64,000 nt of DNA, taken from the NCBI GenBank assembly GCA_049653105.1, contig JBASFQ010000012.1, positions 50,356 through 114,355 of the forward strand. The letters run 5' to 3'. Both the position numbers and the translations under genes were made by a program. Of this stretch, positions 2,134-37,721 are shown one piece after another. Every line of letters starts with the position of its first letter. Position 1 is the stretch's first letter. The notes beneath the pieces are model-generated. The model did no database searches. It was not told the DNA's origin and was given only the letters and a program-made list of their open reading frames with translations. Origin of the DNA: Alphaproteobacteria bacterium. GTDB lineage: Bacteria; Pseudomonadota; Alphaproteobacteria; UBA9219; RFNS01.

Positions 2134-2858
2134 TGATGACAACAACAACCGTACAACCACCGACGCAAAAATTTATGTTCGACCGCACGTTCGACCCGCT
2201 CGCGCCGGTCGAAACCGGGCCGGAAAAGGTGCCTACATACACGCAGGCCGATCTGGACGCTGCCCGGCAATCATCTTTCAACGAAGGATTCGCACAAGGT
2301 GAACAGGCCGCCAACAAAGAACAAACGGCGCGCATTGCCGTCGTCGTGGAAAAAATCGACGGCATGATCGAAAAGCTTCTCCATGACGCCGCGCAACAAC
2401 AGCAGGAGCAACAGTCTGATATTCAAGAGCTGACTCTCGCAATTACTCACAAATTGCTCCCTGATTACATCGCCCGTCATGGCCTTAGCGAGATTGAAAT
2501 GATTTTGATGCAAGTGCTTAAAGAAATGGCGCGGGAACCGCGTCTTGTCGTGCGCGTGCATGACCAGATGCTGGATCCCTTGCAACAGGTTATGCAGGAT
2601 TTAACCGCGCGCGCCGCATATGCCGGCAAAGTTGTTTTGCTTGCCGACGACAAATTAGGCCCCAATGACTGCAAAGTTGAGTGGGCTGACGGCGGCACGG
2701 AACGTGATATCAACGTGATCTGGCATGCCATTGACCAAGCTGTAGGTCGCGGCAAGCTACCAACGCCCGGCGTATCACCTGCTGCGCCGCCATCGCCCGC
2801 GCCTGAATCCCCCCCTAATCCCAATCCACCATCTGCTGCTGAGGAGCGCTCCCCATGA
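2133..2858 (+). CDS. fliH: FliH-like flagellar assembly protein
   Basis: 241 aa between fliG and fliN. The start overlaps the fliG stop (ATGA). The central region is Gln/Glu-rich and coiled-coil-like, and the C-terminus is Pro-rich. Called by position and weak similarity to the FliH family. Confidence 0.5.
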   Translation: MMTTTTVQPPTQKFMFDRTFDPLAPVETGPEKVPTYTQADLDAARQSSFNEGFAQGEQAANKEQTARIAVVVEKIDGMIEKLLHDAAQQQQEQQSDIQELTLAITHKLLPDYIARHGLSEIEMILMQVLKEMAREPRLVVRVHDQMLDPLQQVMQDLTARAAYAGKVVLLADDKLGPNDCKVEWADGGTERDINVIWHAIDQAVGRGKLPTPGVSPAAPPSPAPESPPNPNPPSAAEERSP

Positions 2859-3187
2859 CCAACAACGAAACCCTGGAACTGAGCGAACTTGAAGGGCAGA
2901 CACCGCCTGCTGCGCCCCCGACCGCCGCCACACAAAACGTCTCTGTTGAAGAACTGGGCGCGGTTTATGGCATCCCGGTGCAGGTCTCGGCGGTGCTCGG
3001 CAAGGCCGAAATGCCGGTCAGCCACCTGCTCAAACTTGGCCGTGGCGCCGTCATTGAGCTGGATCGCAAGGTTGGTGAAGCCATTGATATTTACGTCAAC
3101 AATCGTCTGGTCGCACGTGGCGAAGTCGTGGTCGTCGAGGATCGACTGGGCATCACCATGACGGAAATAATCAAGGCAGAATCGTAA
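2855..3187 (+). CDS. fliN: Flagellar motor switch protein FliN (SpoA domain)
   Basis: 110 aa. The C-terminal SpoA/FliN domain is present (IPVQVSAVLGKAEMPVSHLLKLGRGAVIELDR...IYVNNRLVARGEVVVVEDRLGITMTEII). Confidence 0.85.
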   Translation: MTNNETLELSELEGQTPPAAPPTAATQNVSVEELGAVYGIPVQVSAVLGKAEMPVSHLLKLGRGAVIELDRKVGEAIDIYVNNRLVARGEVVVVEDRLGITMTEIIKAES

Positions 3188-3222
3188 TTCCCTCCTCATT
3201 TTTCTAACCAAAGGATACCACG

Positions 3223-4599
3223 ATGCGGTTATTGATCGTCGGCCAACTTGAAGGCTATATCACCGAAGCAGGCCGTATGGCCGTCGCGCGTGGCGCCAAG
3301 GTAGCGCATATCGACGATGTTGATGGTGCTCTGGGCGCATTGCGCGGCGGTCAAGGTGCCGATCTCGTGATGTGTGATATCAAGCGCGACATTGCCCGCC
3401 TGATCGAAAGCCTTAAGAGTGAGCGCATCATTGTTCCCGTGGTCGCCTGTGGTATCGGCACCGACGCCAATGCCGCTGTGCGTGCCATTCGCGCGGGCGC
3501 GAAAGAGTATGTTCCCCTACCCCCGGATGCCGACCTGATCGCTGCCGTTCTGGAAGCTGTCGCCGAGGAAAGCAATGCCATGATCGCGCGCGATCCTGTG
3601 ATGCGTCCGATCATCGAATTGGCAGAAAAAATTGCCCCCAGCGACGCCTCGGTGCTTATCACCGGTGAAAGCGGCACGGGCAAAGAGGTCATGGCGCGTT
3701 TTATCCACCGCAAGAGCAAACGCGCCGCGCAGAGTTTTGTTTCCCTGAACTGCGCCGCCATTCCGGAAAATCTGCTTGAATCCGAGCTATTCGGCCACGA
3801 AAAAGGGGCTTTTACCGGTGCGGTGGCGCGACGGATCGGCAAGTTCGAAGAAGCCAACGGCGGCACACTCTTGCTCGATGAAATCAGCGAAATGGATTTA
3901 CGGCTGCAAGCCAAGTTGTTGCGCGCCATTCAGGAACGTGAAATCGACCGCGTCGGCGGCACACAACCGGTCAAGGTTGATATCCGGCTTCTCGCCACAT
4001 CAAACCGCGATCTCGAAGCCGAAGTCAAAGCCAAGCGCTTTCGTGAGGATCTGTATTTCCGGCTCAATGTCGTCAGCCTTCCCTTACCTTCCTTGCGTAG
4101 CCGCCCGGCTGATATCTCGGCCTTGGCCGATCATTTTTCTCAGAAATACGCGCAAGCCAATGGATTGCCGCCGCGTCCTCTGGCGCCCGCCACGCTCCAG
4201 ATGCTCACGACGCATTATTGGCGTGGCAATGTCCGCGAGTTGGAAAACACCATGCATCGGGCCGTGCTACTGGCGCACGGCTCGGACATTGGCCCCGAAT
4301 CCATTGTCCTCACGGGACAAAGTTTTGCACCTGATTCCGGTGCGCCGACAGCCATAGCCGCGCAGATCTCGGGGCGCGCCCATGATCCGGCCCCCCCCAG
4401 TCAGCTGGTCGGTCGTACAGTGGCCGATGTTGAACGCGACCTTATCATCGATACGCTGGAACATACCTTGGGCAACCGCACACACGCGGCAAATATTCTT
4501 GGCATCTCGATCCGCACATTGCGGAACAAGCTCAAGCAGTATAACGAAGCCGGCGTAAATGTTCCTGCCGCCAGCGGTGAGGAGCGGATCGCCCAATGA
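3223..4599 (+). CDS. flbD: Sigma-54-dependent flagellar transcriptional activator FlbD
   Basis: 458 aa with an atypical N-terminal receiver domain, an AAA+ sigma-54 activator core (GESGTGKEV, GAFTGA) and a C-terminal HTH. The N-terminus closely resembles Caulobacter FlbD (MRLL.VG.L.G...). The stop overlaps the flhA start. Confidence 0.85.
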   Translation: MRLLIVGQLEGYITEAGRMAVARGAKVAHIDDVDGALGALRGGQGADLVMCDIKRDIARLIESLKSERIIVPVVACGIGTDANAAVRAIRAGAKEYVPLPPDADLIAAVLEAVAEESNAMIARDPVMRPIIELAEKIAPSDASVLITGESGTGKEVMARFIHRKSKRAAQSFVSLNCAAIPENLLESELFGHEKGAFTGAVARRIGKFEEANGGTLLLDEISEMDLRLQAKLLRAIQEREIDRVGGTQPVKVDIRLLATSNRDLEAEVKAKRFREDLYFRLNVVSLPLPSLRSRPADISALADHFSQKYAQANGLPPRPLAPATLQMLTTHYWRGNVRELENTMHRAVLLAHGSDIGPESIVLTGQSFAPDSGAPTAIAAQISGRAHDPAPPSQLVGRTVADVERDLIIDTLEHTLGNRTHAANILGISIRTLRNKLKQYNEAGVNVPAASGEERIAQ

Positions 4600-6734
4600 A
4601 CGCGCCAGTCGGCAACAATACCAACCTGACAGTCAGCAACAACGCTCCTGCGCTCTCCACATCGGGAACACCAACCGGGTCCGGAAGCGTGTGGCAGCGC
4701 GGCGAGGTTTGGCTTGCCATTGGGCTGATGGTCATTCTTTCCCTGCTGATTTTTCCAATTCCGGCAATGCTGGTCGATTTAGGTCTGGCGATTTCGATTA
4801 CATTTTCCGTCATTATTCTCATGACTGTACTCTTCATCAATAAACCTTTAGATTTTAGTTCATTTCCTACTGTCCTGCTTATCGCGACGCTGCTGCGCCT
4901 GTCGCTCAATCTGGGAACAACGCGCCTGGTGCTGACACACGGCAACGAAGGCGAAGATGCCGCAGGTCAGGTGGTCAAGGCCTTCGCCGGTTTCGTCATG
5001 GGTGGTGATTTCATCATCGGAGTTATTGTTTTTGCTATTATTACCATTGTTAATTTTGTGGTCATCACCAAGGGGTCGGGCCGTATCGCCGAAGTCGCGG
5101 CGCGCTTTACCCTTGACGCCATGCCTGGCAAACAAATGGCCATTGACGCCGACTTATCATCCGGCCTGATTGACGAATCCGAAGCGCGCAAGCGACGTAA
5201 GGAGCTGGAAGACGAAAGCAGTTTCTTCGGTTCCATGGATGGTGCGGCAAAATTTGTGCGCGGCGACGCAGTTGCCGGTTTGATTATCACCTTTATCAAC
5301 GGCATCGGCGGCATCGCTATTGGCGTTGTGCGTCATGAAATGAAGGTTCTCGACGCTGCCGACGTCTATGTTAAACTTACTGTCGGCGACGGCCTTGTAA
5401 CGCAAATTCCTTCCCTTCTGGTCTCGGTTGCCGCTGGTATGCTGGTTTCCAAAGCCGGACAAACCGGGTCAACGGACAAAGCCCTGTTCAATCAGCTGGG
5501 TGGTTATCCTGCCGCACTGGGACTGACTTCGGCGATGCTGATGATAATGGCGATCATGCCCGGCATGCCGATGATCCCTTTTGTGCTCCTGGGAAGTATC
5601 GCAGGTTTTGCCGCCTATGGCAGCAGCCAGAAGATAAGCAAGCTCGCGGTGGAAAAAGCCAAAGCTGAGTCAGATCTTGCCAAAGCGGCTCCGGTTGCCG
5701 AAGAGCCGATTAATAAATCTCTGACCATCGACATTGTACGTCTTGAACTGGGTTATGCGTTGTTGGCGCTGATCAATAGTGACCAAGGGCAGAAGCTGAC
5801 CGACCAGATCAAGGCGCTCCGGCGGCAGTTGGCGGGCGACCTCGGCTTTATCATGCCTGCCGTCCGCATTCAGGATAACCTGCAGTTGCCGCCTAACAGT
5901 TATGTCATTCGTTTCAAGGAAATCGAGGCCGGGCGCGGTGAATTGCGTCCTGGGATGTTGATGGTCATGGATCCGCGCGGCGAGCCTCTGGCTCTGCCTG
6001 GTGAGATGACCACCGAACCTGCATTTGGTCTACCGGCCATGTGGGTCGATCAGACTTATCGTGAAGAAGCTTTGTTCAAGGGCTATTCTGTTGTCGATCC
6101 CCCGACCATCATCACCACGCACCTGACGGAATTGATCAAGGATAATATGGCAGAAATGCTTTCCTATTCTGAAACCCAGAAGCTCCTTGATGAACTGGGG
6201 AAAGAGCAACAGAAGCTGATCACCGATGTTATCCCCACACAGATTACAGTCACGGGATTGCAGCGCGTGTTACAACACCTGCTTTCCGAACGCATTTCCA
6301 TCCGCGATTTGGCGACAATTCTGGAAGGAGTATCAGAAGCATCAAACGCAACACGCAACCTGACCCTGATCGCCGAGCATGTACGCATGCGGCTGGCGCG
6401 GCAGATTTCTGACATGCATACCAATGACATAGGGTATATCCCTCTGCTGGCGCTTTCTCCAGATTGGGAACGCGATTTCAATGAGGCCTTGATCGGACAG
6501 GGCGACGAGCGTCAGTTGGCGCTTGCCCCCAGCAAGCTCCAGGCGTTTATTCGCAGCGTACGTGAAACCTATGACCGCCACGGAGCGATGGGCGAACAGC
6601 CTATTCTTCTGACCAGCCCTGGCGTTCGTCCCTATGTCCGGTCTATTATCGAGCGTTTCCGGCCAGCAACGGCCGTGATGTCACAGAATGAAATTCATCC
6701 CAAAGCCAAAATCAAAACACTGGGTCAAATCTGA
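4596..6734 (+). CDS. flhA: Flagellar biosynthesis protein FlhA (type III export gate)
   Basis: 712 aa with a polytopic N-terminal membrane domain, the FHIPEP signature and a large cytoplasmic C-terminal domain. Confidence 0.92.
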   Translation: MNAPVGNNTNLTVSNNAPALSTSGTPTGSGSVWQRGEVWLAIGLMVILSLLIFPIPAMLVDLGLAISITFSVIILMTVLFINKPLDFSSFPTVLLIATLLRLSLNLGTTRLVLTHGNEGEDAAGQVVKAFAGFVMGGDFIIGVIVFAIITIVNFVVITKGSGRIAEVAARFTLDAMPGKQMAIDADLSSGLIDESEARKRRKELEDESSFFGSMDGAAKFVRGDAVAGLIITFINGIGGIAIGVVRHEMKVLDAADVYVKLTVGDGLVTQIPSLLVSVAAGMLVSKAGQTGSTDKALFNQLGGYPAALGLTSAMLMIMAIMPGMPMIPFVLLGSIAGFAAYGSSQKISKLAVEKAKAESDLAKAAPVAEEPINKSLTIDIVRLELGYALLALINSDQGQKLTDQIKALRRQLAGDLGFIMPAVRIQDNLQLPPNSYVIRFKEIEAGRGELRPGMLMVMDPRGEPLALPGEMTTEPAFGLPAMWVDQTYREEALFKGYSVVDPPTIITTHLTELIKDNMAEMLSYSETQKLLDELGKEQQKLITDVIPTQITVTGLQRVLQHLLSERISIRDLATILEGVSEASNATRNLTLIAEHVRMRLARQISDMHTNDIGYIPLLALSPDWERDFNEALIGQGDERQLALAPSKLQAFIRSVRETYDRHGAMGEQPILLTSPGVRPYVRSIIERFRPATAVMSQNEIHPKAKIKTLGQI

Positions 6735-25700: not shown

Positions 25701-26687
25701 GGACAACCCACGTTCCGGCAACAAGGATGTCAGCGGTACCAGCTTAAATCCGCGCGACTCCAGTTGCGCCAGCCATGAGCGCAACACCTCCAGAGTTACC
25801 GGATGCGGATGGCCGATAGCAATGGCCGAATTCCGTTCGACCGCGACGGCCTCAAGCCGTGCCAGTTCGCGCCGCACATCAGCCTCCGTGACCACATCGT
25901 CCAGAAATATGTCGCGTCCCAAAACGGGAATACCCTGCGTATGCGCCATGGCGAGAGCTTGTGACTGCGACGTTGTTTTTGAATCAAGAAAAAACACTTC
26001 ATGCTTCTTAATCTCCTGCATAACAGGAAGAAGTCGGTTTTCATCCGCCGTAAACTTGCTTCCCATGTGATTATTGACGCCAACAGCACCGGGCACAGCG
26101 ATGAAGGCGCGCTGCACCCGCATCACCAATTCATCATCCGACAAGTCCGTCGTCAGCGCCTCTGGCCCCGGATGTTCCCGTCCGACGGGTTGCATCGGGA
26201 GGTGGAGCAAAATCTCATGCCCACGCTCTTTGGCAGCCTGTGCTTGCGCCGCAACGCCTTTCCCATAAGGCAGAAATGACAGGGCGACTTCTGGCGGCAG
26301 AGCAATCGCTGCACGTGTCGCCGCCGCATTCAACCCCAGATCGTCGATCACGACCGCGATGCGCGGATGTTCTCCGGGATGAATTGCGCTGCGCTGTTCC
26401 ATTTCCTGCGGTGACGGTACGACCGGCATCGACGACAGAACTTCGGGCACGAGGGTTGATTCTATCGGAACTGATTGTGGCAGAGCTTCGTCACGGCGCG
26501 TGATCTCTAGCGTCACCTCAGGTTGAACAGCTGTTTCAACCGCCCGAGATACTTCCACCGGTTCGCGTTGTGGCAATGAAGGCGAACGTTGCGCCAGATT
26601 GGAAGGAAAGAACCAGTAAAATAAAAAAGCGATAAATAACAAAACAGCATATGGCCCGACATTGAAACCATTCGGCAGTTTAAACAT
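25686..26687 (-). CDS. Divergent polysaccharide deacetylase family protein (YibQ-like)
   Basis: 333 aa with an N-terminal TM. The C-terminal domain carries the motifs VVIDDLG, VNNHMGS and FLDSKTT characteristic of YibQ/divergent 4-helix polysaccharide deacetylases. Confidence 0.7.
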   Translation of the reverse strand: MFKLPNGFNVGPYAVLLFIAFLFYWFFPSNLAQRSPSLPQREPVEVSRAVETAVQPEVTLEITRRDEALPQSVPIESTLVPEVLSSMPVVPSPQEMEQRSAIHPGEHPRIAVVIDDLGLNAAATRAAIALPPEVALSFLPYGKGVAAQAQAAKERGHEILLHLPMQPVGREHPGPEALTTDLSDDELVMRVQRAFIAVPGAVGVNNHMGSKFTADENRLLPVMQEIKKHEVFFLDSKTTSQSQALAMAHTQGIPVLGRDIFLDDVVTEADVRRELARLEAVAVERNSAIAIGHPHPVTLEVLRSWLAQLESRGFKLVPLTSLLPERGLSLIVE

Positions 26688-28872
26688 GCGGCCGCCACCA
26701 TTTAAGAGTCATGGCCATGCAGATGACCGCCAAACTGCTGAGTCCCATGCCCAACGCCGCCATATGCGGCGGCACACGCCCGATAATCGCCAGAGGCAAG
26801 GCAATGGCGTTAAAAACAATTGCCCAGCAGATATTCACAAACATAAGGCCGTGCGCCATCTTCGCAAGGCTGAGTAATGCAGGCACGAGCCGCAAATCAT
26901 CGCGCAACAGACGTACCGGAGAAGCGGCATCAGCCGCAGCGACACCATTGCACATGGCAATCCCCAGATCAGCCGCCGCTAAAGCCGGAGCATCATTCAT
27001 GCCATCGCCAACCATGGCAATGACCTCGCCCCATTTCTGGCGTTTCTGAATTTCCTGAATCTTGTCCTGCGGCAACGCCTCGCCGTTCGATTGCCCGATA
27101 CCCAGCCGTTTGGCAACGGAGAGCGTATTATGTTTGTTATCTCCGCTCAGCACCGCCAGCATATAATGGCCTTGTTGCAAGCGCCCTATAGCATCCTGCG
27201 CCTCAGGACGCACAGAGTCGCGGAATGCCATAACCCCCAGCAATGCAGGCAAGGGCGTCAACTCCGCCAGCCATACCAACGCCCGGCCTCTTTCTTCCCA
27301 GGCAGCCGCCGTCACGGCGGCGTCATCCAAAGGCACCTTGTGCTGATCCATAAATTGGAGATTGCCGCATATCAGCTTGCGTCCGTCCTGCATCGTCCCC
27401 AGAACCCCGCGGCCATGTACGATCTCCGCAGGGCTTTGCAAAACCGGCATCGACGTCGGCGCAATCTTACCGGACGCGATCGTACGCAACGCCTCCGCCA
27501 GAGGGTGGTTGACATGCTGGTTAAGCGCGGCGGCCTCGGCCAGAACCTGATCACCCGAAAAAGAACCGAGCGCCAAGGTTTCTGCCAATTCCGGCCTGCC
27601 CAGTGACAATGTCCCGGTTTTGTCAAAGATGACCGTCGTGATCGACGCCGCACGCTCCAAAGTTGCCGCATCGCGGATCAGAATACCATAACGCGCCGCC
27701 TGGCCTATCGCCACCGTGATGACGATCGGCACGGCCAACCCCAAAGCACAGGGACACGCCATCAGCAAGACCGACAAGGCCGTTTGCAGCCCCATATCGA
27801 TATCGTCGCGGAGAAAGCTCCATAATCCCAACGCGCCAATGGCACAGATGATCACGGCAAAAATGAAGTATCCGGCAATCGTATCCGTCATGCGTTGAAT
27901 CGGCGCACGCGAGGCTTGTGCCACAGCCACCATATCCGCCAGGCGGTCGAGCATTGTCTGCCCGACCAGAGTCGTGACATTCATGGCGACATTGCCGCCA
28001 AGGCACAAGGCTCCGGCAATCACGGAGTCTCCGGCCCCCAGCACACGCGGCGCCGCCTCGCCGGTAATCAGGGAAAAATCAAAAGACCCTTGTCCACCAA
28101 CCAGTTCCCCATCAAGCGGCACGCGTTCCCCCGTCCATACCGCCAGCGTATCCCCCACCTTGACCTCGGCCAGGGCAACCATATTTTCGCGCCCGCCGGT
28201 TTCGATGCGCCGCACCTGTTGGGGCTGTAATGTAATAAGGTGATGAACCGCCGCGATGGACTGACGCCGCACACGTCCCTCCAGCCACTGGCCGAACATC
28301 AAGAACAGAATCACCAGCGCCGAAGCCTCAAACAGCAGCTCGCCCTGCCCATGAACAACGCGCCATGCGCTGACGCCATAAGCAACACTGGAACCGAATG
28401 CCGCCAGAACATCCATATTCAGATTCTGGTTTTTTAAGGCGTGTGCCGCGCCATAATAAAATTTCCAACCGCCCCAAAATTGTACAATAGAGGCCAGCGC
28501 CAACAAGAGCCAGGGCGCGACGATTGCGTCCAGAACCTCCTTGCCCATGAACATTGGCAGCAGCAAGGGGAGCGACAAAAACCCGCATATAAAAATCTTT
28601 AGCAACCCAGAATCGCTCTCCGAAGCCCCAGCACCGCCCCACATACCGGCCCTATACCCGGCCTGAGCAACGGCGGCGATGAGATCCCGCTGCGCGACCA
28701 TCCCCTCGGTAAAATCTATATCAACACGCCCGGTTACCAGATTGACCGCCGTTTTACTGACACCAGGAACCTGCATGAGCGTTTGCTCGATGCGGGTAAC
28801 ACAGGCCGCACAATGCATACCGGTGACCGCCAGAACCAGATGTCGTACCGGTGCCGATTTAATATTTGTCAT
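26680..28872 (-). CDS. copA: Copper-translocating P1B-type ATPase
   Basis: 730 aa with an N-terminal HMA domain (GMHCAACV), a CPC ion-transduction motif (ACPCALGLA), the phosphorylation site DKTGTLS, and GDGMNDAPAL. Confidence 0.88.
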   Translation of the reverse strand: MTNIKSAPVRHLVLAVTGMHCAACVTRIEQTLMQVPGVSKTAVNLVTGRVDIDFTEGMVAQRDLIAAVAQAGYRAGMWGGAGASESDSGLLKIFICGFLSLPLLLPMFMGKEVLDAIVAPWLLLALASIVQFWGGWKFYYGAAHALKNQNLNMDVLAAFGSSVAYGVSAWRVVHGQGELLFEASALVILFLMFGQWLEGRVRRQSIAAVHHLITLQPQQVRRIETGGRENMVALAEVKVGDTLAVWTGERVPLDGELVGGQGSFDFSLITGEAAPRVLGAGDSVIAGALCLGGNVAMNVTTLVGQTMLDRLADMVAVAQASRAPIQRMTDTIAGYFIFAVIICAIGALGLWSFLRDDIDMGLQTALSVLLMACPCALGLAVPIVITVAIGQAARYGILIRDAATLERAASITTVIFDKTGTLSLGRPELAETLALGSFSGDQVLAEAAALNQHVNHPLAEALRTIASGKIAPTSMPVLQSPAEIVHGRGVLGTMQDGRKLICGNLQFMDQHKVPLDDAAVTAAAWEERGRALVWLAELTPLPALLGVMAFRDSVRPEAQDAIGRLQQGHYMLAVLSGDNKHNTLSVAKRLGIGQSNGEALPQDKIQEIQKRQKWGEVIAMVGDGMNDAPALAAADLGIAMCNGVAAADAASPVRLLRDDLRLVPALLSLAKMAHGLMFVNICWAIVFNAIALPLAIIGRVPPHMAALGMGLSSLAVICMAMTLKWWRPHV

Positions 28873-28949
28873 GCCCCAAGGATACGCGCTAAATATTGAT
28901 TATTCAACGCGGAAACACCCCAAGTTAACCATAGAACCCGACCAGGATC

Positions 28950-29969
28950 ATGAATTTCCAAAAATATATGGCGGCAGCACAACAGCCCGCAGGTCTAGGC
29001 CAGGAAGCTATGCAGGCAGCCTGCGACATCATTTTTCGCGGTGATGTGACGACAGCGGAAATCGCAGAATTCCTGAAAACACTTGTCGACCGCGGCGAAG
29101 CAGGGAGCGAACTCACAGGACTGGTTCAATCTCTGCGTACCCACGCCGCCCCATTTCCAGCACAACCTCAGGCAGTTGATGTCTGTGGTACAGGAGGAGA
29201 CGGACAAAATACGGTTAATATCTCGACCGCCGTTGCCTTGACCGTCGCCGCGTGCGGAGTTCCTGTCGTCAAGCATGGAAATCGCGCCGCTTCCAGCAAA
29301 TCGGGATCGGCTGACGTTCTGGAAGCTTTGGGCGTGAAAATTGACGCCGCGCCAGCATTATCGTTGCAAGCGCTTGAGCAAGCCGGGATATGTTTCCTGT
29401 TTGCCCCACTGTATCATCCGGCAATGCGCCATGTGGCCGAAGCGCGACGCATGGTTGGACAACGTACCATCTTTAATCTCGCGGGGCCTTTGGCCAATCC
29501 CGCCCGGCCGCAACGCCAACTGGTCGGCGTTTTCCACCCCCGTTGGATTATGCCGATGGCCGAAACACTGCAAACGCTCGGCGGCACAGAATCCTGGGTT
29601 GTCCATAGCCGCGACGGCATGGACGAATTAAGCATCAACGCAACCTCAGACACCGCGCAGTTGCACGACGGAGCCATCCGTCTCATCCCACTTGATCCGA
29701 GAAATTATGGCCTCTCCCCTGCGCCACAAGATGCCTTGCGCGGTGGCGATGCCGCGGCCAATGCCGCCATGATCTATCACTTGTTGAGCGGCAGCATGGG
29801 AGCCTTGCAGGATATTGTCGCGCTTAACACCGCCGCAGCACTGGTTATTGCCGGCCATACCCCTGATATCACCCATGGTCTCGCTACAGCACGCGCCACT
29901 TTAAATAGTGGCATCGCGCTGACAACATTAAAACGTCTGGTCGCCATAACCAACGGGAAAACCCCATGA
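28950..29969 (+). CDS. trpD: Anthranilate phosphoribosyltransferase
   Basis: 339 aa with the motifs GTGGDG and KHGNRAASSKSGSADVLEALG. Confidence 0.92.
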   Translation: MNFQKYMAAAQQPAGLGQEAMQAACDIIFRGDVTTAEIAEFLKTLVDRGEAGSELTGLVQSLRTHAAPFPAQPQAVDVCGTGGDGQNTVNISTAVALTVAACGVPVVKHGNRAASSKSGSADVLEALGVKIDAAPALSLQALEQAGICFLFAPLYHPAMRHVAEARRMVGQRTIFNLAGPLANPARPQRQLVGVFHPRWIMPMAETLQTLGGTESWVVHSRDGMDELSINATSDTAQLHDGAIRLIPLDPRNYGLSPAPQDALRGGDAAANAAMIYHLLSGSMGALQDIVALNTAAALVIAGHTPDITHGLATARATLNSGIALTTLKRLVAITNGKTP

Positions 29970-30757
29970 CCGATCTGCTCCAGGAAATTTGTGCCCGGAA
30001 ACTGGAACATATTGCATCCAGCCAGCACGCCATGCCATTGCATGTTCTGGAATCACGTATCGCCGCATTACCGCCACCGCGTGATTTTATCGGCGCGTTG
30101 CAGGCCAAATGCACGGCGGGACATTTTGGGCTAATCGCGGAAATGAAGCGCGCCTCACCTTCTGCTGGCTCCATCCGTCATGATTTTGACCCGGTCGCTA
30201 TTGCTGCGGCCTATAAATCCGGCGGCGCAGCTTGCCTGTCCGTTCTAACCGACCAGCCTTATTTCAAAGGGCGTGATGATGACATCGCGGCAGCGTCCTC
30301 GGCTGGCTTGCCGATCCTTCGCAAGGATTTTGTGCTTGCGCCCTATCAAATTGCGGAAACGCGCGCCCTGGGCGGCGATTGTGTTCTGTTGATCATGGCA
30401 GCTCTGGAGGATGCGCAAGCTGCAGAACTGCATGCAGCGGCCACGCATTACAACCTGCATATTCTGATCGAAGTCCATGACGCCAAAGAGCTGACGCGCG
30501 CCTTGCGCCTTCCCGGCGGCATGATAGGTATCAACAATCGGAATTTAAAAAATTTACAGATCAACCTCGATACCACGCGCACTTTGGCCGAGCGTGTGCC
30601 GAAGGATCGACTGATCATCAGCGAGAGTGGCCTTCGCAGTCATTCCGACTTGGAGAACCTGCGTCTCTCCGGCGTGAATTGCTTCCTGATCGGCGAGCAT
30701 CTCTTGATCCAACCCGATCTGACCGCCGCGACGCGCAGGATGCTGGGCCTTAGATAA
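29966..30757 (+). CDS. trpC: Indole-3-glycerol phosphate synthase
   Basis: 263 aa with the motifs IAEMKRASPS, ILRKDFV and IGINNRNL. Confidence 0.92.
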   Translation: MTDLLQEICARKLEHIASSQHAMPLHVLESRIAALPPPRDFIGALQAKCTAGHFGLIAEMKRASPSAGSIRHDFDPVAIAAAYKSGGAACLSVLTDQPYFKGRDDDIAAASSAGLPILRKDFVLAPYQIAETRALGGDCVLLIMAALEDAQAAELHAAATHYNLHILIEVHDAKELTRALRLPGGMIGINNRNLKNLQINLDTTRTLAERVPKDRLIISESGLRSHSDLENLRLSGVNCFLIGEHLLIQPDLTAATRRMLGLR

Positions 30758-30796
30758 AACTTGACAGTGAGAATGATTTACTTGAATTAGGATGCC

Positions 30797-31213
30797 ATGA
30801 AATCAGTGTATGCTGTTTCTTGGCGTTGTTTGCGCCCTCGACACAAGCTGCAATTACACGCTTGCATGTCCTGGCTTCTTATAGCGGCAATGCTTGTGCG
30901 CGGTCTGGTCCCTGTTGGCTTTATGCCTGACATGGACGGAATTGGCGTGATGGCAATCCGGATTTGCAGCAGCGCCGGACTGCAGACCATTTACATTAAA
31001 ACATCTCCCGAAGAACGCCCTGTCACCGCTGCACAACATAACCAATGTGCGCTTTGCGCTGCGCCTGTGTTGTCTGGAGCGGTGACACAAGAAGCCCTGG
31101 CCACTTTTATTGGTTTCCTTATTCTCGCGACGATTGCGGCGGGATGGATACTCCTGACGCACCGACGTTTCTATGTGATCGCATCGCCGCGCGCGCCCCC
31201 TTCTGTCTCATGA
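30797..31213 (+). CDS. DUF2946-like small membrane protein (putative Cu-associated; HxxCxxC motif)
   Basis: 138 aa with an N-terminal TM (WLLIAAMLVRGLV), GFMPDMDG, IRICS and HNQCALCAA motifs, and a C-terminal TM. It is the first gene of the AT-richer islet. Confidence 0.35.
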   Translation: MKSVYAVSWRCLRPRHKLQLHACMSWLLIAAMLVRGLVPVGFMPDMDGIGVMAIRICSSAGLQTIYIKTSPEERPVTAAQHNQCALCAAPVLSGAVTQEALATFIGFLILATIAAGWILLTHRRFYVIASPRAPPSVS

Positions 31214-31307
31214 ATGAATCTCAATAAACTCGCGCATACTGAGCTGATGTAGCGGCCTTTTGTTGGCTGTGTTCAGTGTGCGTCATCATCATTCAATGGA
31301 GACAGCT

Positions 31308-31523
31308 ATGAAAAACAACACGTCGTTTAAGATTGTCGGTGCGGCTCTTACAACTGCCGGAATCCTTGCATTAACCGACCCTGCTCCCGCTTTAGCTTGG
31401 GGGCATTCTGCAGCCGATACAACACGGAATATCGGCTTCCTTGCAGGTGGTGTACTCGCCGCCCGCGCACTCCAGCGTAAAGTCTGCGCTAAATATGCAG
31501 CTCCGAAAAATAAGCTGGGCTAA
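31308..31523 (+). CDS. Small secreted hypothetical protein
   Basis: The start was chosen at MKNNTSFKIVGAALTTAGILALTDPAPALA, a signal peptide with an AxA site. The mature part is about 40 aa. The ORF as drawn could start at 31260. Confidence 0.3.
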   Translation: MKNNTSFKIVGAALTTAGILALTDPAPALAWGHSAADTTRNIGFLAGGVLAARALQRKVCAKYAAPKNKLG

Positions 31524-31534
31524 TTAGCTTCAAT

Positions 31535-32473
31535 GTGTGCAACGCGGCGTTAGCAACGCTTCGTTGCACCGTTTGGCTTTTTTTCACCATGCTTATCCAT
31601 GCCAACGACTTGCGCTCCAAGTTCCGAACTGCGGGGACATGGCTTCCCAGCCATCCCAGTCCGGAATCGGCAGCTCGTATCATCACCTGTGGCTTTTCTC
31701 AGCTCCAAAGGATAGGCGGCGGGGCGCAAATTAATATGTGGCATCCCAAACACGTTGGAACCGACGCAACAAAACCTATTCCCTTGCAATGGGTTGCTAT
31801 CAGGCAAGTCGAGATTCTTTTTGAAGGCAGCCACATCGAATTATTCAATATGGAAATGGAAAACTTCAAGCGCAGCCTGAGATCATTTTGCGCTTGCCGT
31901 GCAGGTGGCCAGCGCCTGGCAATTGTAGTCGGTGGAATTTACCAAGGCACGAAAGCATCACAAGATCGCCTTGCCTTCTTCGATGCAACCTTACGAGATC
32001 GCCTGCATGATATCGTCAACATACTTTGGTTGGATGAATTCTCTGAAACTTTCACGGGGCGTGCCGCCGGCAACACTGGATCCGATATTACAAAGCTTTT
32101 GCCTTATGTCGGCACAGCACTCGGCGCCAGACAGTTGTTCCAAAAAAAGACATCAGCACCGTCTTCCTTCACGAATACGCACGACATGGCATTGAATTTT
32201 ATTTCCGCCGTCGATGCCATGCCGCGATCATGCGCCAAAGAATACAGCGTGCTTGTCGGTTTAAAGATTCCAACCCATCGTCCTGACAACGATATTGATT
32301 GGGTCACACCTCATGAATTTCAACGCCTGCCATTCATGCAAGCACTTCATTCAGTCTTCAACACTTTTGGAATGGACACACCGACAACGCATCACCCGCG
32401 TGGACACGGCGATCATATGAATTATCAAAAACGCGCCGATCCAGCTCACTTTCTTAGGATCGCGCCATGCTAG
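31535..32473 (+). CDS. Hypothetical protein, His/Cys-containing, no recognisable family
   Basis: 312 aa; an alternative start at 31589 (MLIHAN) is possible. It is AT-rich relative to flanking genes. The C-terminus has a His cluster (TTHHPRGHGDHMNY) and there is an internal CAC pair. No TM, P-loop or known catalytic motif was seen. Confidence 0.4.
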   Translation: MCNAALATLRCTVWLFFTMLIHANDLRSKFRTAGTWLPSHPSPESAARIITCGFSQLQRIGGGAQINMWHPKHVGTDATKPIPLQWVAIRQVEILFEGSHIELFNMEMENFKRSLRSFCACRAGGQRLAIVVGGIYQGTKASQDRLAFFDATLRDRLHDIVNILWLDEFSETFTGRAAGNTGSDITKLLPYVGTALGARQLFQKKTSAPSSFTNTHDMALNFISAVDAMPRSCAKEYSVLVGLKIPTHRPDNDIDWVTPHEFQRLPFMQALHSVFNTFGMDTPTTHHPRGHGDHMNYQKRADPAHFLRIAPC

Positions 32474-32850
32474 ATCGCAAACCTCCGCCATTTTATCAAA
32501 TACATATTTTTATCTGTACGCATGAAGTTTCCGATCACCGCTGCTGCGGTCGCCGCAACAGCCACACGCTGTTCAAATATGCACGAAGCCGCGTGTGTGA
32601 ACTCAAACTTACCGGTGCATGCGTCACCCAAACGGGGTGCCTCGGAAGATGTATGAGCGGTCCGTCTCTGGTCATCTATCCCGACAATATTTGGTATAGC
32701 CCGCACTCCCAGGCCGATATCGATGCGATACTCATCAACCATGTGGGCACGAAAACGCTCGTTGAGAACCTTTTAATGCCAAACACAGACCTTCCTGTAC
32801 CCGGCTATGACGTGGCTGCGGCAGAAGAGAATGAGGTTGGCGATGTATAA
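32467..32850 (+). CDS. Thioredoxin-like [2Fe-2S] ferredoxin family protein
   Basis: 127 aa. The four-Cys pattern of the thioredoxin-fold 2Fe-2S ferredoxins is present (HIFICTH...C...GCLGRCMSGPSLVIYPDNIWY). The start overlaps the stop of the upstream ORF. Confidence 0.55.
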   Translation: MLDRKPPPFYQIHIFICTHEVSDHRCCGRRNSHTLFKYARSRVCELKLTGACVTQTGCLGRCMSGPSLVIYPDNIWYSPHSQADIDAILINHVGTKTLVENLLMPNTDLPVPGYDVAAAEENEVGDV

Positions 32851-33313
32851 AAAATGGCGCTTTGCAGCACGGGAAATCATGCTTAGTGCTGTAGCAGCAA
32901 CCGCCATCTATGGCGTCTCCAGCCCTGTCGTGCATTGGTACGCAGAGCAGCCGAAACACGACGGGCAGGTTGGAACGATTGAACAGAATCATATTGAACT
33001 GGTTGCGCGACCGGATCAGATCGTTGTTTATGTCACTGACCATGAAGGAACGCCTTCGGAATCGAGGGGTTACGCCATCCGCGCCACCATCGATGCTGAT
33101 GCCCCGCGCCGTATGTTTCCTACAGAAAATATTAACGGAAGATTTGAGTTGAGGGAAAGTTTCCCTCTCCAGCCGAATACGCGCATTGTGATAGACGTCG
33201 AACGCGATTGCGTTCCCGCAGGGGCAGTAGTCTTCAGACCATCCCCTTCGAACGTAATCACGCCAAAAACTGTGGCTTACACCCCAGCGCCTCAACCATG
33301 CTCAGCGCACTAA
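32843..33313 (+). CDS. Hypothetical periplasmic protein
   Basis: Start chosen at MYKKWRF..., giving an N-terminal hydrophobic signal/anchor (AVAATAIYGVSSP). The rest is a beta-rich soluble domain. Overlaps the upstream ORF by 8 nt. No family recognised. Confidence 0.35.
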   Translation: MYKKWRFAAREIMLSAVAATAIYGVSSPVVHWYAEQPKHDGQVGTIEQNHIELVARPDQIVVYVTDHEGTPSESRGYAIRATIDADAPRRMFPTENINGRFELRESFPLQPNTRIVIDVERDCVPAGAVVFRPSPSNVITPKTVAYTPAPQPCSAH

Positions 33314-33346
33314 CCTTGCTCTCATGGCGTGGCGCGCAAGCAATAT

Positions 33347-34255
33347 TCAGTCTTTATTATCGAGTTCTGCAAACTGCCACTGAACTTCGGGGTAGAGCGT
33401 TTTTACTTTTTCTTCAAAGTCATTCACTCGGCGGATCATCGTCTGTGTATCCGGATTATGAGCGCCCGGATTGATTTTGTAAGCCAGCATGACCGCATCC
33501 ACGCCCTGTTGCAAAGCAACGAATCTGATGAAACGTCCGCCGGGTATAGCTTCCTGCAAAACCCGCTCCAATTCGGGGCGGTAATCATGCGACGGCATTT
33601 CACCAATCAGAAGTGATTTGACTTCACGTGCCAGGATAAAGGCTACCGCAACCAACAACACACCGATCAGAAGAGAGCCAAACCCGTCCCAGAACGTGTC
33701 CCCGGTGATCCATGTCAAAAGCAATGCCATGAACGCCAGTATCAACCCCAGCAAGGCCGCAAGATCTTCAAGGAAAATCACCAATAAATCCGAACTCGTC
33801 GTTTTACGTACCCACTGCCACAGCGAGCCAAAACGATTTTGCACCTTAACCTCGACATAACATTTCCAGAAAGAAAATGTTTCCAGGCCTATGGCGATCA
33901 ATAAAATCACGATCCCAACCCATGGGCTACTCACGGAGCCGGGGTGGGATATTTTATGCCAGCCTTCATAAATGCTGAACATTCCTCCCATTGAGAAGAG
34001 GAGAAGAGCGACCACGAACGACCAAAAGAAGGCTTCTTTTCCAAGTCCAAGGGGATGCAACGGTGTCGGAGGCTTTTTTGCCGCACTTTGTCCATAAAGC
34101 AGGAGAGCCTGATTGCCGCAGTCAGAGAGACTGTGTACCGCCTCTGCCATCAACGAGGCGCTGCCTGTCAAAATCGCACCCCCGAATTTAGACGCCGCAA
34201 TGCCCATGTTTGCCATAAGCGATATAATAATAACTTTCCTTGAACCACCAGACAT
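33347..34255 (-). CDS. Cation diffusion facilitator (CDF) family metal efflux transporter
   Basis: Six TM helices with the motif HSLSDCGNQALLLYG and a C-terminal cytoplasmic domain. The ORF as drawn starts at a TTG (34264); the first ATG (MSGGSRK) is at 34255, 5 nt after the pntB stop. Confidence 0.85.
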   Translation of the reverse strand: MSGGSRKVIIISLMANMGIAASKFGGAILTGSASLMAEAVHSLSDCGNQALLLYGQSAAKKPPTPLHPLGLGKEAFFWSFVVALLLFSMGGMFSIYEGWHKISHPGSVSSPWVGIVILLIAIGLETFSFWKCYVEVKVQNRFGSLWQWVRKTTSSDLLVIFLEDLAALLGLILAFMALLLTWITGDTFWDGFGSLLIGVLLVAVAFILAREVKSLLIGEMPSHDYRPELERVLQEAIPGGRFIRFVALQQGVDAVMLAYKINPGAHNPDTQTMIRRVNDFEEKVKTLYPEVQWQFAELDNKD

Positions 34256-34260
34256 AACGC

Positions 34261-35664
34261 TCAATGCTCCATTGTCTTGACAATTTCCTCACACACCTTT
34301 TTCGCGTCACCAAAAAGCATCATGGTATTATCACGATAGAATAATTCATTCTCCACACCGGCATAGCCAGATGCCATCGACCGCTTGATGAACAGGACTG
34401 TCTTGGCTTTCTCGACATCCAGCACGGGCATGCCGTAAATCGGTGACTTCGGATCGGTCTTTGCCGCCGGGTTGGTCACGTCATTCGCGCCAATAACAAA
34501 AGCCACATCGGCGCGCGCAAAATCACGATTGATTTCTTCAAGTTCCAGAACCTCGTCATAAGGCACATTGGCTTCTGCCAACAGCACATTCATGTGCCCC
34601 GGCATGCGCCCGGCGACCGGATGAATAGCATAACGCACCTCGACGCCGGCCTTCTTGAGTTGATCGGCCATTTCGCGCAAAGCGTGCTGCGCCTGCGCCA
34701 CAGCCATTCCGTAACCTGGGACGATAATAACACTGGATGCGTTCTTGAGAATAAAAGAGGCATCTTCTGCCGACCCTGTTTTAACCGTGCGATCGCCGGC
34801 CACGCTCGCGCCGGACGCTGCGGCACTGTCGCCACCAAAGCCGCCCAAAATCACATTCAGGATCGACCGGTTCATACCTTTACACATGATATAGCTGAGG
34901 ATTGCTCCCGACGAACCGACCAAGGCTCCCGTGATGATGAGCAAGCTGTTCTGCAAAGTGAAACCGATGCCTGCTGCTGCCCAACCGGAATAACTGTTCA
35001 GCATCGAGATCACGACCGGCATATCCGCGCCACCAATCGGCAGTATCAAGAGAAAGCCGAGTGCCAGCGTCACCAGAATAATCAGGAAGAACACAAATCC
35101 CGACTGGCTCATGCATAATATGGCGATCAGGAGCAGGGCGAATAATCCCAAAGCCAGGTTCAATTGATGCTGCAGGGGAAAGGCCAACGGCTTACCGGAA
35201 ACCAGGCCTTGCAGTTTGGCAAATGCCACTACCGACCCGGTGAAGGTTATCGCCCCAATGGCCGCCCCCAGTCCCATTTCGATCAGACTGCCGACAAAAA
35301 TCTGCCCGCCTCCAGCACCAATGCCAAAATCATCAGGCGCAAGAAATGCGGCCGAGGCAACGAGAACCGCCGCCAGCCCCACCAGAGAATGGAACCCAGC
35401 AACCAATTGCGGCAACGCCGTCATTTTAATCTTTTGCGCGATATACGCGCCGATGCCACCACCAAACGCAATGCCGACAATAATGACGAACCATGACTGG
35501 AACGCGACCGCAGGCGACAGCATGGTCGTGACAATCGCCAACGCCATACCGGCAGCGCCAAACATATTGCCCTGACGTGCCGTGACAGGGGACGCCAGGC
35601 CACGCAGAGCCATAATGAAGCAGATGGCCGAAACAAGGTAAGCAAAGGCGGCAATGCCGGACAT
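34261..35664 (-). CDS. pntB: NAD(P) transhydrogenase subunit beta
   Basis: 467 aa with a polytopic N-terminal membrane domain and a C-terminal NADP(H)-binding dIII domain ([22 protein letters not shown]). Confidence 0.93.
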
Positions 35665-35678
35665 GGACTAAGCTCCCG

Positions 35679-36098
35679 CTATTTGGATTTTTTTCTGTAC
35701 ATATGTAACATCCGCTGCGTCACAATGAACCCACCGAAGATATTGATTGAGGCCAGAATAACGGCAATTAACCCCAGCCAGCTTGAGGCCGTGATTTCCT
35801 CTGCCCCCGTCGCCAGCAAGGCTCCGACGATAATCACCGAAGAGACGGCATTCGTGACCGCCATCAAGGGCGAGTGCAGAGCCGGCGTCACCCGCCAGAC
35901 AACATAATAGCCGACGAAGCAGGCCAGGACAAAAACCGTCAGACCAAAAATAAAAAAATCCTGATGCCCGCCTGCATGACTGGCCGCCTGTGCTACCAGC
36001 TCGTGCGATTGCCCGGCCAGCACCTTCGCGAATTTAGCCAGCTGTTCCTGCTCTTCGGCCAGTTTCTGGATATTACCCGCAAAATTTTCTACGCTCAT
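35679..36098 (-). CDS. pntAB: NAD(P) transhydrogenase alpha subunit part 2 (membrane dII segment)
   Basis: 139 aa with four TM helices. This is the typical split alpha-2 subunit of alphaproteobacteria. Confidence 0.85.
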
Positions 36099-36126: not shown

Positions 36127-36561
36127 TCACGGTTTCACCGGAGCCACGATAGGTGTTGCGTTGTGTATTCCAATCGGTTCGTCCGGGTTGAATTCGTGGG
36201 GCATATTCGATGGCGCAGAAGGAGCTGCCGCGGGTTCGTTGCCAACCATTGGCACGGCCACTAACGGAACCGATTCAGCCCCTGGCGCTTGCATTTGCAC
36301 CTGCACCGGCGCTGGTGGCGTTGGTGCGGCGTGAAGACCGCCGGCCTTCTGCCGCCGGTGTTCCCACATGATGTGGCTCTCCAGATGGTTCAGGCGCGCT
36401 TCCAACATGCCGGATTCTACCCGTGCCACAGTAACTTCTTTGTGCAAGTCCAAAAAGTTTCCGGAAAAAACCAGAAAAAAGCCCGCACAACAGACAATCG
36501 TAATCGCCAGGCTTGTGATCCACTGGTGCAGGCGCTCTTTGTTGTTGGCATTGGATAACAT
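36127..36561 (-). CDS. Hypothetical membrane-anchored protein inserted between pntAA and pntAB
   Basis: 144 aa with an N-terminal TM ([18 protein letters not shown]), a short coiled coil and a Pro/Ala-rich C-terminus. Intergenic gaps are 20 and 28 nt. Confidence 0.4.
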
Positions 36562-36581: not shown

Positions 36582-37721
36582 TCAGATGAATTGCGGATGC
36601 ACGACAGCGCCCGCATGGGTCAGCAACATGGCCTTGATGATCTCATCCTCGGGATTCAGTTTGAAGTCTCCGCTCTCCTTATCGTGATAGAAAGCGATGA
36701 GATTATAGATATTACGCGCATACAATGCCGAAGCATCGACGGCAATTCGGCTGGGTATATTGCGGTAACCAACAATCTTGACCCCACCAATATCAACAAT
36801 CTCCCCGGGTTTGCTGCACGCGCAGTTGCCGCCCTGTTCAACCGCCATATCGACAATCACAGATCCCGGTTTCATGCTGCGTACCATGGTCTCGGAGAGC
36901 AATTGTGGCGCAGGACGCCCCGGAATAAGCGCTGTGCAGATGACAATGTCCTGTTTTTTGACTGTCTCAGCGATCAACACGGCCTGTCTCTGCTTAAAGT
37001 CATCACTCATTTCCTTGGCATAGCCACCTGATGTTTCAGCATTTATTGTCTCGTCACTTTCCACCATAACGAAAGTCGCGCCCAGACTTTGGACCTGCTC
37101 TTTCGCCGCCATACGCACATCCGTAGCAGAAACCACCGCGCCAAGCCGCCGCGCCGTCGCGATGGCCTGTAATCCCGCTACCCCTGCTCCCATCACCATG
37201 ACTCGTGTCGGAGGTATTGTCCCCGCCGCCGTCATCATCATTGGAAATGCGCGCCCGAATTCCGTCGCTGCATCGAGAACGGCTCGATACCCGGCCAGAT
37301 TGGCTTGCGACGACAAGACATCCATGCTTTGTGCCCGCGTGATGCGCGGAACCAGTTCCATGGCCAGTGCACTCACCTGACGCGAGGCAAAAAGCGGTAA
37401 TTCCGCGCGCGCACTATGCGGACTAAACATCGCAATCACCGTCGCGCCGGGTTTAAGCATGGCGACTTCGTCCGTCCCCTCAGCCGCCGTCATCGGCCGC
37501 TGCACCTTCAGAACCAGATCGGCATCTCCGGCAGCCGTGGCGGCATCACGGAGATGTGCCCCCGCGTCACGATAGGCCTGATCGACATAGGAGGATTCCA
37601 CTCCGGCGCCGGATTCCACGGCGACCTGATGCCCAAGAGCAATCAGCTTCTTCACCGTCTCCGGCGTTGCCGCAACGCGGCGTTCAAACGGCCGACGTTC
37701 CTTGAGTACTGCAATTTTCAT
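36582..37721 (-). CDS. pntAA: NAD(P) transhydrogenase alpha subunit part 1 (dI, NAD(H)-binding)
   Basis: 379 aa with alanine-dehydrogenase/PNT N- and C-domains and a Rossmann motif (VMVMGAGVAGLQA). Confidence 0.9.
   Translation of the reverse strand: MKIAVLKERRPFERRVAATPETVKKLIALGHQVAVESGAGVESSYVDQAYRDAGAHLRDAATAAGDADLVLKVQRPMTAAEGTDEVAMLKPGATVIAMFSPHSARAELPLFASRQVSALAMELVPRITRAQSMDVLSSQANLAGYRAVLDAATEFGRAFPMMMTAAGTIPPTRVMVMGAGVAGLQAIATARRLGAVVSATDVRMAAKEQVQSLGATFVMVESDETINAETSGGYAKEMSDDFKQRQAVLIAETVKKQDIVICTALIPGRPAPQLLSETMVRSMKPGSVIVDMAVEQGGNCACSKPGEIVDIGGVKIVGYRNIPSRIAVDASALYARNIYNLIAFYHDKESGDFKLNPEDEIIKAMLLTHAGAVVHPQFI

Follow-up and report, generated by a model that had tools for sequence, protein, structure and literature searches.

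DUF2946 leader proteins, typified by CruR of Bordetella pertussis (Bp2923) and CutF of Rhodobacter capsulatus, embody a recently discovered form of nascent-peptide copper sensing, and the operons described for them carry known copper proteins. CruR is recognized by the layout of a CxxC and a RAPP motif in the DUF2946 leader; the CxxC of the nascent chain senses copper and relieves arrest at RAPP, whereupon the operon is turned off (PMC9426467). In the case of CutF, copper enhances arrest at the Pro-rich C-terminus, melting a stem-loop that hides the Shine-Dalgarno (SD) sequence (PMC9973294; bioRxiv 10.1101/2025.02.05.636593). Here, we describe a cassette in which a DUF2946 leader heads four products without a described family or role. 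It lies in a 64,000-nt stretch of DNA from an Alphaproteobacteria bacterium (contig JBASFQ010000012.1, positions 50,356 to 114,355), referred to below as the window.

A DUF2946 leader heading new cargo

The cassette is about 2.5 kb long and runs in the order DUF2946 gene, a gene of ~72 aa, a gene that we call X, a ferredoxin gene of ~125 aa, and, in most cases, a fifth gene of ~160 aa. X is found in this same gene order at eight distinct loci (the window, L002, L003, L004, which is the same as L006, L005, L007, L008, and L013, which is the same as L021; L001 carries the same X protein as L002), and the DUF2946 gene stands first at all eight. At L003, the flanks are unrelated to those of the other loci and only the fifth cassette gene is missing, and at L013, X is down to 43% identity and still resides in the cassette; the conserved unit is therefore the cassette and not the neighborhood. 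The window cassette and several of its relatives lie downstream of trpD-trpC. Genes for an HMA/CPC P-type ATPase (26680-28872, − strand) and a CDF transporter (33347-34264, − strand) are found near the window cassette, both outside the conserved unit. An HMA/CPC P-type ATPase gene likewise adjoins the cassette at L004, and L007 has a DUF1775/YcnI-like gene close by. A literature search found no published link between DUF2946 and a ferredoxin cassette.

The first gene (30797..31213, + strand) encodes a 138-aa protein of the CruR/CutF type that meets the Pfam threshold for DUF2946 (PF11162; 26.2 bits, cut-off 23.7). It shares with CruR and CutF the hydrophobic export segments, the CxxC, and an R-A-P-P placed 3 residues from the stop at a spacing of ~45: its N-terminal hydrophobic export segment precedes C84-A-L-C87, and another hydrophobic segment lies between this motif and R132-A-P-P135. 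The layout of CxxC, 44 residues, R(A/G)PP, 3 residues, and stop was found in five of the six loci measured; the leader of L013 has lost the second Cys. PF11162 matched the orthologue of L002, matched that of L003 weakly, and gave 22.9 bits, just under the cut-off, for that of L013. The genes behind the leader differ from those of both described systems. The cassette lacks the TonB-dependent transporter or PepSY protein of the CruR operon as well as the multicopper oxidase or CopG of the CutF operon, and none of the syntenic families of PMC9426467 is present; its cargo comprises, besides the protein X, an X-X-His peptide (in which X stands for any residue), a 2Fe-2S ferredoxin of the cytoplasm, and a His-rich protein with a membrane anchor. 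The cassette is thus a DUF2946-led copper operon, a type already known, with new cargo.

As in cutF-cutO, a stem-loop over the SD sequence of the next gene is predicted; the corresponding intergenic element of CruR is a Rho site. In the window, this RNA element (31203..31305, + strand; ΔG, −42.6 kcal/mol) reaches from the last codons and stop of the leader through the SD sequence of the small gene. The window stem-loop (94-nt spacer) has a z-score of −3.9, and 0 of 200 shuffles fold equally well. The small-gene SD sequence, GGAGA at 31298-31302, is predicted to be occluded by the outer helix CUGUCUC/GAGACAG, and in the predicted fold the last leader codons together with the UGA (CUGUCUCAUGA) pair with the SD-containing GGAGACAG. 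In seven of seven loci examined, the minimum-energy fold is closed by pairing between CUCCUGAA and UUCAxGGAG, L004 being counted after its start was moved to an internal AUG behind GGAGA. Taken one by one, most loci did not reach significance in a contiguous-helix shuffle test of this pairing, so the argument rests on the consistent fold in 7/7 loci and on the z-score of the window. That the helices are short and the loci related counts against the explanation that we favor below. Rfam gave no match within 28000-35000.

We infer from this arrangement that arrest of the leader at RAPP should open the ribosome-binding site (RBS) of the small gene and that the cassette is probably responsive to copper. 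In the proposed chain of events, the DUF2946 leader would be translated and its nascent chain would sense copper via the CxxC; a ribosome arrested at R-A-P-P, three codons before the stop, would cover the 5′ arm of the hairpin and thereby free the RBS of the small gene, allowing translation of the X-X-His peptide. With motifs of the CruR kind and a hairpin of the CutF kind, the locus does not reveal the sign of its response to copper.

The small gene (31308..31523, + strand), with GGAGA 5 nt ahead of its ATG and orthologues in seven loci, encodes a 71-aa protein. It starts with a Sec-type signal peptide whose last residues are A-L-A. The predicted mature form opens with W-G-H and continues through a short Gly/Ala-rich transmembrane helix and a basic tail to a conserved N-x-L-G at the C-terminus. 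With cleavage placed by the (−3,−1) rule, W/F/A-G/S-H follows A-x-A in 7/7 loci, and position 2 is never Pro. If cleaved as predicted, the peptide would present an ATCUN-type X-X-His on the outer side of the membrane. The likeness to ATCUN sites (NH2-X-X-His, binding Cu or Ni) lies in this predicted mature start; the difference is that the small peptide is a membrane-anchored bacterial peptide of 41 to 48 residues, and its copper binding is a prediction.

A GC-rich hairpin followed by a U7 run separates the small gene from X in the window (31526..31584, + strand; ΔG, −31.2 kcal/mol; z, −3.6), with its core stem at 31532-31573 and the U-run at 31578-31584, 4 nt before the ATG of X. A scan for consensus promoters and terminators found nothing above chance and missed this hairpin. 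The same spacer harbors a hairpin of differing sequence in 7/7 loci (z, −4 to −6.7), which at L003 has the form of a canonical terminator (stem plus U6). In our reading, the element terminates transcription in part or stabilizes the transcript, so that more of the small peptide would be made than of X, the ferredoxin, or the fifth protein. Because so strong a hairpin stands between X and the unit of leader and small gene, the leader need not control X, which counts against the explanation that we favor below. X might even be unrelated to copper, it and the ferredoxin merely lying downstream of a leader-peptide unit that ends at the hairpin. The recurrence of the hairpin, its terminator form at L003, and the distant family members found in contexts without copper genes (see below) all suit this alternative. 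We nevertheless hold it to be improbable and rank it third among the alternatives, given that the five genes keep together where the flanks differ (L003) and at an identity as low as 43% (L013), and that the gains of His and Asp residues described in the next section are specific to the copper-cassette clade. Moreover, the 4 nt between the U-run and the start of X in the window leave no room for a separate promoter. In the reading that we favor, read-through past the intercistronic hairpin would yield the coupled trio of X, the ferredoxin, and the anchored His-rich protein.

X as a gene and as a family

A sequence-only reading of the window had singled out the open reading frame at 31535-32473 as a 312-aa protein of no recognizable family, without transmembrane segments and possibly metal binding, whose stop overlaps the start of a thioredoxin-fold [2Fe-2S] ferredoxin and which could be a new partner in metal delivery or redox chemistry. 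It had proposed remote-homology and co-occurrence searches, and it had named a clear Pfam match to a non-metal enzyme family, or a lack of homologues indicative of a spurious frame, as findings that would speak against it. The frame is indeed uninterrupted on the + strand and gives 312 aa when read from the GTG at 31535, though the conserved start is the ATG at 31589, which is used in every full-length homologue and in the NCBI gene call (P0001, 294 aa), an identical protein named "MAG: Alphaproteobacteria bacterium, hypothetical." The 18 codons between the two candidate starts show no conservation among homologues, and GTG 31535 was dropped in favor of ATG 31589. X is accordingly treated here as a soluble protein of 294 aa (31589..32473, + strand) whose family has not been described before; its highest 19-residue Kyte-Doolittle mean is 1.03, which agrees with the absence of a transmembrane segment.

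X is a real gene, with homologues and constrained amino acid change. That it could be a frame left open by chance might be argued from the lack of an SD sequence ahead of either GTG 31535 or ATG 31589 and from the lack of a match to any curated family. Against this stand homologues at 22 to 67% identity, orthologues whose synonymous sites are saturated (pS, 0.73 to 0.84) whereas amino acid change is constrained (pN, 0.19 to 0.43), synteny and stop/start coupling kept across loci, and a fold model that becomes confident given a deep enough alignment. We count the chance-frame explanation as refuted and give it practically no credence.

Nine homologues of X at 50 to 67% identity were returned by a search of 5.8 billion clustered proteins, and a profile search of 1.84 billion representative proteins defined the family as 42 clusters at 50% identity, 17 of which score below an E value of 1e-30. 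All sources are metagenomes or metagenome-assembled genomes (MAGs) of uncultured bacteria, mostly labeled Alphaproteobacteria, and each named member is a "hypothetical protein." The species-representative genome collection, scanned with alignment A1, contributed four X loci and the JGI metagenomes one; plasmids gave zero tblastn matches with X and with P0030, and a search of a word-indexed protein database with the family profile recovered known members only. X itself had no match at an E value of ≤1 in Pfam-A 2025 and NCBIfam 20, and 10 close family members had none at ≤10 in Pfam or NCBIfam. Among the 32 wider members, matches were isolated and scattered, all with E values of >0.008, and PADLOC and PHROGs gave no match below 0.2. 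X thus remains without a recognizable family in all four resources, and no Pfam match to a non-metal enzyme family appeared.

Among PDB sequences, the family profile matched a single chain, of FolD, through a 57-column local V-x-L-P-L-P motif that we judged to be a chance similarity. An AF2 model of X built from a 32-sequence alignment reached a pLDDT of 76.6 and a pTM of 0.75; the prediction from a 10-sequence alignment reached a pLDDT of only 31. The modeled fold is a helix-packed antiparallel sheet with predicted strands at residues 29-41, 46-53, 68-77, 107-119, and 216-226, and with a poorly defined C-terminal tail. Comparison of this predicted structure with the two libraries PDB and BFVD returned no match. 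X may thus be regarded as an orphan family without a fold match in the PDB and, judging from the model, possibly as a new fold. No cofactor or catalytic motif was recognizable in X. Alternatively, X might be a noncatalytic adaptor or sensor, a PAS/GAF/longin-like alpha/beta sandwich that docks on the conserved cytoplasmic N-x-L-G tail of the small membrane peptide and recruits or regulates the ferredoxin; we consider this unlikely, and it comes second among the alternatives.

The suggestion of metal binding in the sequence-only reading had been based on a C-terminal His cluster and an internal CAC pair. Both are present in X, as T-HHPRGHGDHM at 32387-32419 and C-A-C at 31889-31897, and only the former has withstood comparison, in part. 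Most homologues carry F-N-V/A-A-R-A at the position of the CAC pair, which is ruled out as a metal site because it is unconserved. HHPRGHGDHM is invariant in eight close-clade members (alignment A2), and in the wider family the cluster is reduced to H-x-R-G-Y-G-D-(R/H), so that its invariance is confined to the close clade. Family-wide conservation extends to R30, W51, W68, R72, Q73, E75, E79, R104, R109, D126, D132, H269, R271, and D275, and the wider alignment contains no conserved set of Cys or His ligands. In the close clade, H82, E84, D233, N234, D235, D237, H268, and H276 are invariant as well, and H273 is kept in all members except one; the DNDIDW motif to which D233 to D237 belong (32285-32302) is specific to this clade. 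The copper-cassette clade has thereby gained the His and Asp residues H82, D233, D235, D237, H268, H273, and H276, together with E84. At position 276, His occupies 11/11 ferredoxin-linked members, and Arg 13 of the 21 others.

The metallochaperones UreE, HypB, SlyD, and CooJ have flexible His/Asp-rich C-terminal segments. X resembles them in possessing such a segment, its tail packing 4 His and 1 Asp into 9 residues. There is no homology between these proteins and X, and the tail of X differs from theirs in being a fixed motif, not a variable His run, that degenerates outside the clade. In the model of X, the His-rich tail and the DNDIDW loop are placed with low confidence (pLDDT, 50 to 60), too low to examine a three-dimensional site, which counts against the explanation that we favor below.

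Two kinds of 2Fe-2S neighbors

The gene that follows X (32467..32850, + strand) encodes a 127-aa thioredoxin-like [2Fe-2S] ferredoxin, a family that includes Aquifex aeolicus Fd4 and the Clostridium and Azotobacter types, and it matches Fd4 (PDB 1F37) with an E value of 5.7e-13. Over a 92-residue alignment, its Cys17, Cys27, Cys58, and Cys62, spaced in the pattern C-x(8-12)-C-x(about 30)-C-x3-C, coincide with cysteines of Fd4, which are the cluster ligands in that structure. The NCBIfam model fdxn_Azotob matched at 2.4e-13, under the equivalog cut-off, and Pfam likewise stayed under its cut-off. The cassette ferredoxin differs from the Fd4 type in that its C terminus is prolonged by an acidic stretch of ~20 residues; X itself is unrelated to thioredoxin-like [2Fe-2S] ferredoxins. 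The stop of X and the ATG of the ferredoxin overlap by 7 nt (ATGCTAG, 32467-32473), as the sequence-only reading had noticed. An overlap of 7 to 14 nt was found in six of six loci measured (the window, L002, L003, L004, L005, and L013), and the ferredoxin gene follows X wherever the contig of the locus reaches that far; the coupling of the two genes is thus conserved.

The fifth gene (32843..33313, + strand; NCBI P0056) overlaps the ferredoxin stop by 8 nt and encodes an N-terminally anchored protein of 156 aa with the conserved His-rich stretch H-x-G-Q-V...Q-N-H-I-E-L-V...V-Y-V-T-D-H-x-G-x-P-S. L002, L004, L007, and L013 each carry an orthologue, and L003 has none. Neither Pfam nor the PDB gave a match, and the word-indexed database returned only the protein itself.

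A sister clade (P0014, P0015, and P0019) consists of X paralogues at about 30 to 33% identity. At L011 and at L014/L015, the gene behind X encodes a [2Fe-2S] protein of the Bfd type (C-x-C...C-x-x-C), with Fer2_BFD scores of 30.5 and 28.5 bits (cut-off, 26); its start overlaps the stop of X or sits within 10 nt of it. The presence of two structurally unrelated 2Fe-2S carriers beside two clades of X is the best clue to function, and it is paralleled by the distribution of His and Arg at position 276. At L014/L015 and at L016, the sister-clade X is preceded by a weakly PvcA/DIT1-like gene of the isonitrile-synthase family (26.6 bits at L014, cut-off 26.4; 22.9 bits at L016), whose stop abuts the start of X or overlaps it by ≤1 nt. 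The match covers only part of the profile (positions 2-110 of 273), and against PvcA (3E59) the E value is 0.49. A relationship of X itself to PvcA/DIT1 was rejected, the hhalign probability against the PvcA-like neighbor being 0.06%.

This arrangement recalls PvcA/PvcB isonitrile clusters in that X paralogues directly follow a weakly PvcA/DIT1-like gene, and differs from them in that X is related to neither PvcB nor PvcA and the window cassette has no PvcA-like gene. It also invites the reading of X as a ferredoxin-dependent tailoring enzyme in the biosynthesis of a small molecule, for instance, a copper-binding metabolite, with the leader only timing expression. The sister-clade order of PvcA/DIT1-like gene, X paralogue, and, at L014, Bfd-like gene would fit such a role, and the family-wide Arg, Asp, and Glu residues would suit an active site for an anionic substrate. 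On the other hand, the window cassette holds no PvcA-like or other biosynthetic gene, the PvcA match spans only part of the profile and becomes very weak when PvcA itself is compared, and X offers neither a cofactor or catalytic motif nor a match to an enzyme fold. We regard this explanation as unlikely, albeit the first among the alternatives.

More distant relatives of X are solitary, in tandem (L009), or located beside RecX-like or HNH genes, in all cases with no ferredoxin. For five of them, the surroundings contain neither copper nor ferredoxin genes, which counts against the explanation of X as a metal-binding ferredoxin partner. Together with the lack of a conserved Cys/His set in the wider family, these five non-copper contexts lead us to conclude that metal handling was not the ancestral function of X.

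A candidate ferredoxin partner in copper handling

A cytoplasmic 2Fe-2S center tied to copper handling has a precedent in CopZ of Archaeoglobus fulgidus, for which Sazinsky et al. in 2007 reportedly described a [2Fe-2S]/Zn N-terminal domain and proposed Cu(II) reduction. CopZ has no sequence or fold relation to X, which lacks an HMA/CxxC domain, and in the cassette the cluster sits on a separate protein. With this precedent in mind, the explanation that we place first, tentatively and as a possibility short of a probability, is that X is a soluble cytoplasmic ferredoxin partner that binds metal, likeliest copper, within a copper-responsive cassette. We infer the interaction of X with the ferredoxin, its metal binding, and its chemistry. 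Once the coupled trio is made, X would bind the metal via the clade residues H82, E84, D233, D235, and D237, with its site also using the tail H268-H269-x-x-x-H273-x-D275-H276. X and the ferredoxin would then exchange electrons, e.g., for the conversion of Cu(II) to Cu(I); alternatively, X might protect or replace a copper-sensitive redox step. The link to metal that had been drawn from the sequence finds support in the genomic context, namely, in the DUF2946 leader, the ATCUN-like peptide, and the HMA/CPC ATPase and YcnI-like genes close to some of the cassettes, and in the His/Asp gains of the clade; the redox partnership finds support in the 2Fe-2S genes coupled to X in two clades. A point against our explanation is the lack, within the cassette, of a polytopic membrane protein that could bridge its periplasmic and cytoplasmic parts.

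A more far-reaching version would see in the cassette an undescribed copper pathway that spans the inner membrane, in which the peptide and the His-rich protein capture Cu(II), X, with its new fold, and the ferredoxin carry out the redox step, and the hybrid leader acts as a gate. We consider it doubtful, more so than the three live alternatives weighed above.

The cassette is very rare and restricted to uncultured bacteria, which limits its general importance. If X does bind copper and exchange electrons with the ferredoxin, bacterial copper homeostasis would gain a new redox step located in the cytoplasm, and a function would be assigned to what may be a new fold. Should the pathway reading hold, X would stand for a new class of proteins that process metals with the help of a ferredoxin.

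Overlapping genes and the intercistronic hairpin

The last gene of the cassette, encoding an anchored His-rich protein, starts at position 32807 in the mechanical ORF list, whereas the conserved and NCBI-called start is the ATG at 32843, which overlaps the ferredoxin stop (ATGTATAA). With the start at ATG 32843, the genes for X (the soluble 294-aa orphan-family protein), the 2Fe-2S ferredoxin and this fifth protein thus follow one another in an unbroken series of stop/start overlaps. Between the small signal-peptide gene and X, all seven loci (the window, L002, L003, L004, L005, L007, and L013) carry a strong GC-rich hairpin, located at 31526-31584 in the window, whose structure is conserved while its sequence varies. 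A U7 run lies 3′ of the hairpin in the window, and the L003 counterpart is a canonical terminator. The spacer hairpin probably acts as an attenuator within the operon or as an mRNA-stability element.

Apparent fusion and tandem copies of X

A single ORF joins the small signal-peptide protein to X in P0010, a partial NCBI entry assigned to 'Hyphomicrobium sp.' Because its sequence is nearly identical to that of L002 except around the spacer, this arrangement more likely reflects a frameshift or an assembly artefact than a real fusion. L009 encodes two tandem X-family paralogues (1399-2391 and 2391-3243); the stop codon of the upstream copy directly adjoins the start of the downstream one.

Genes in the vicinity of X relatives

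A gene for a DUF1775/YcnI-like copper-binding protein (5910-6485; Pfam 2.3e-43) lies ∼2 kb downstream of the L007 cassette. In the sister clade, the X paralogues of L014 and L016 are directly preceded on their 5′ side by a gene for a PvcA/DIT1-like protein of 366-379 aa (isonitrile synthase family; L014 3862-5001 and L016 153-1253), assigned by a marginal, partial match. The L014 gene order, PvcA-like, X and Bfd-like 2Fe-2S, has the appearance of a small gene cluster in its own right. RecX-like genes occur upstream of two distant X relatives, P0013 and P0023 (L010 and L017), and in L010 the gene after P0013 (4921-5058) encodes a 45-aa peptide that has one helix and a basic tail. Elsewhere in the window, an N-anchored, Pro/Ala-rich ORF of 144 aa (36127-36561, minus strand), with no match in Pfam, separates the two pntA parts (alpha1, 36582-37721; alpha2, 35679-36098); ORFs of 157 aa in L001 (4971-5444) and 162 aa in L004 (9841-10329) occupy the same position.

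A divergent DUF2946 leader

The most divergent cassette, that of L013, has a DUF2946 leader (66-428) that retains R-G-P-P followed by three residues; the second cysteine of its CxxC motif is lost, the sequence there reading H-T-L-C-T-L-G. This loss suggests that the metal-sensing site of the L013 leader is altered.
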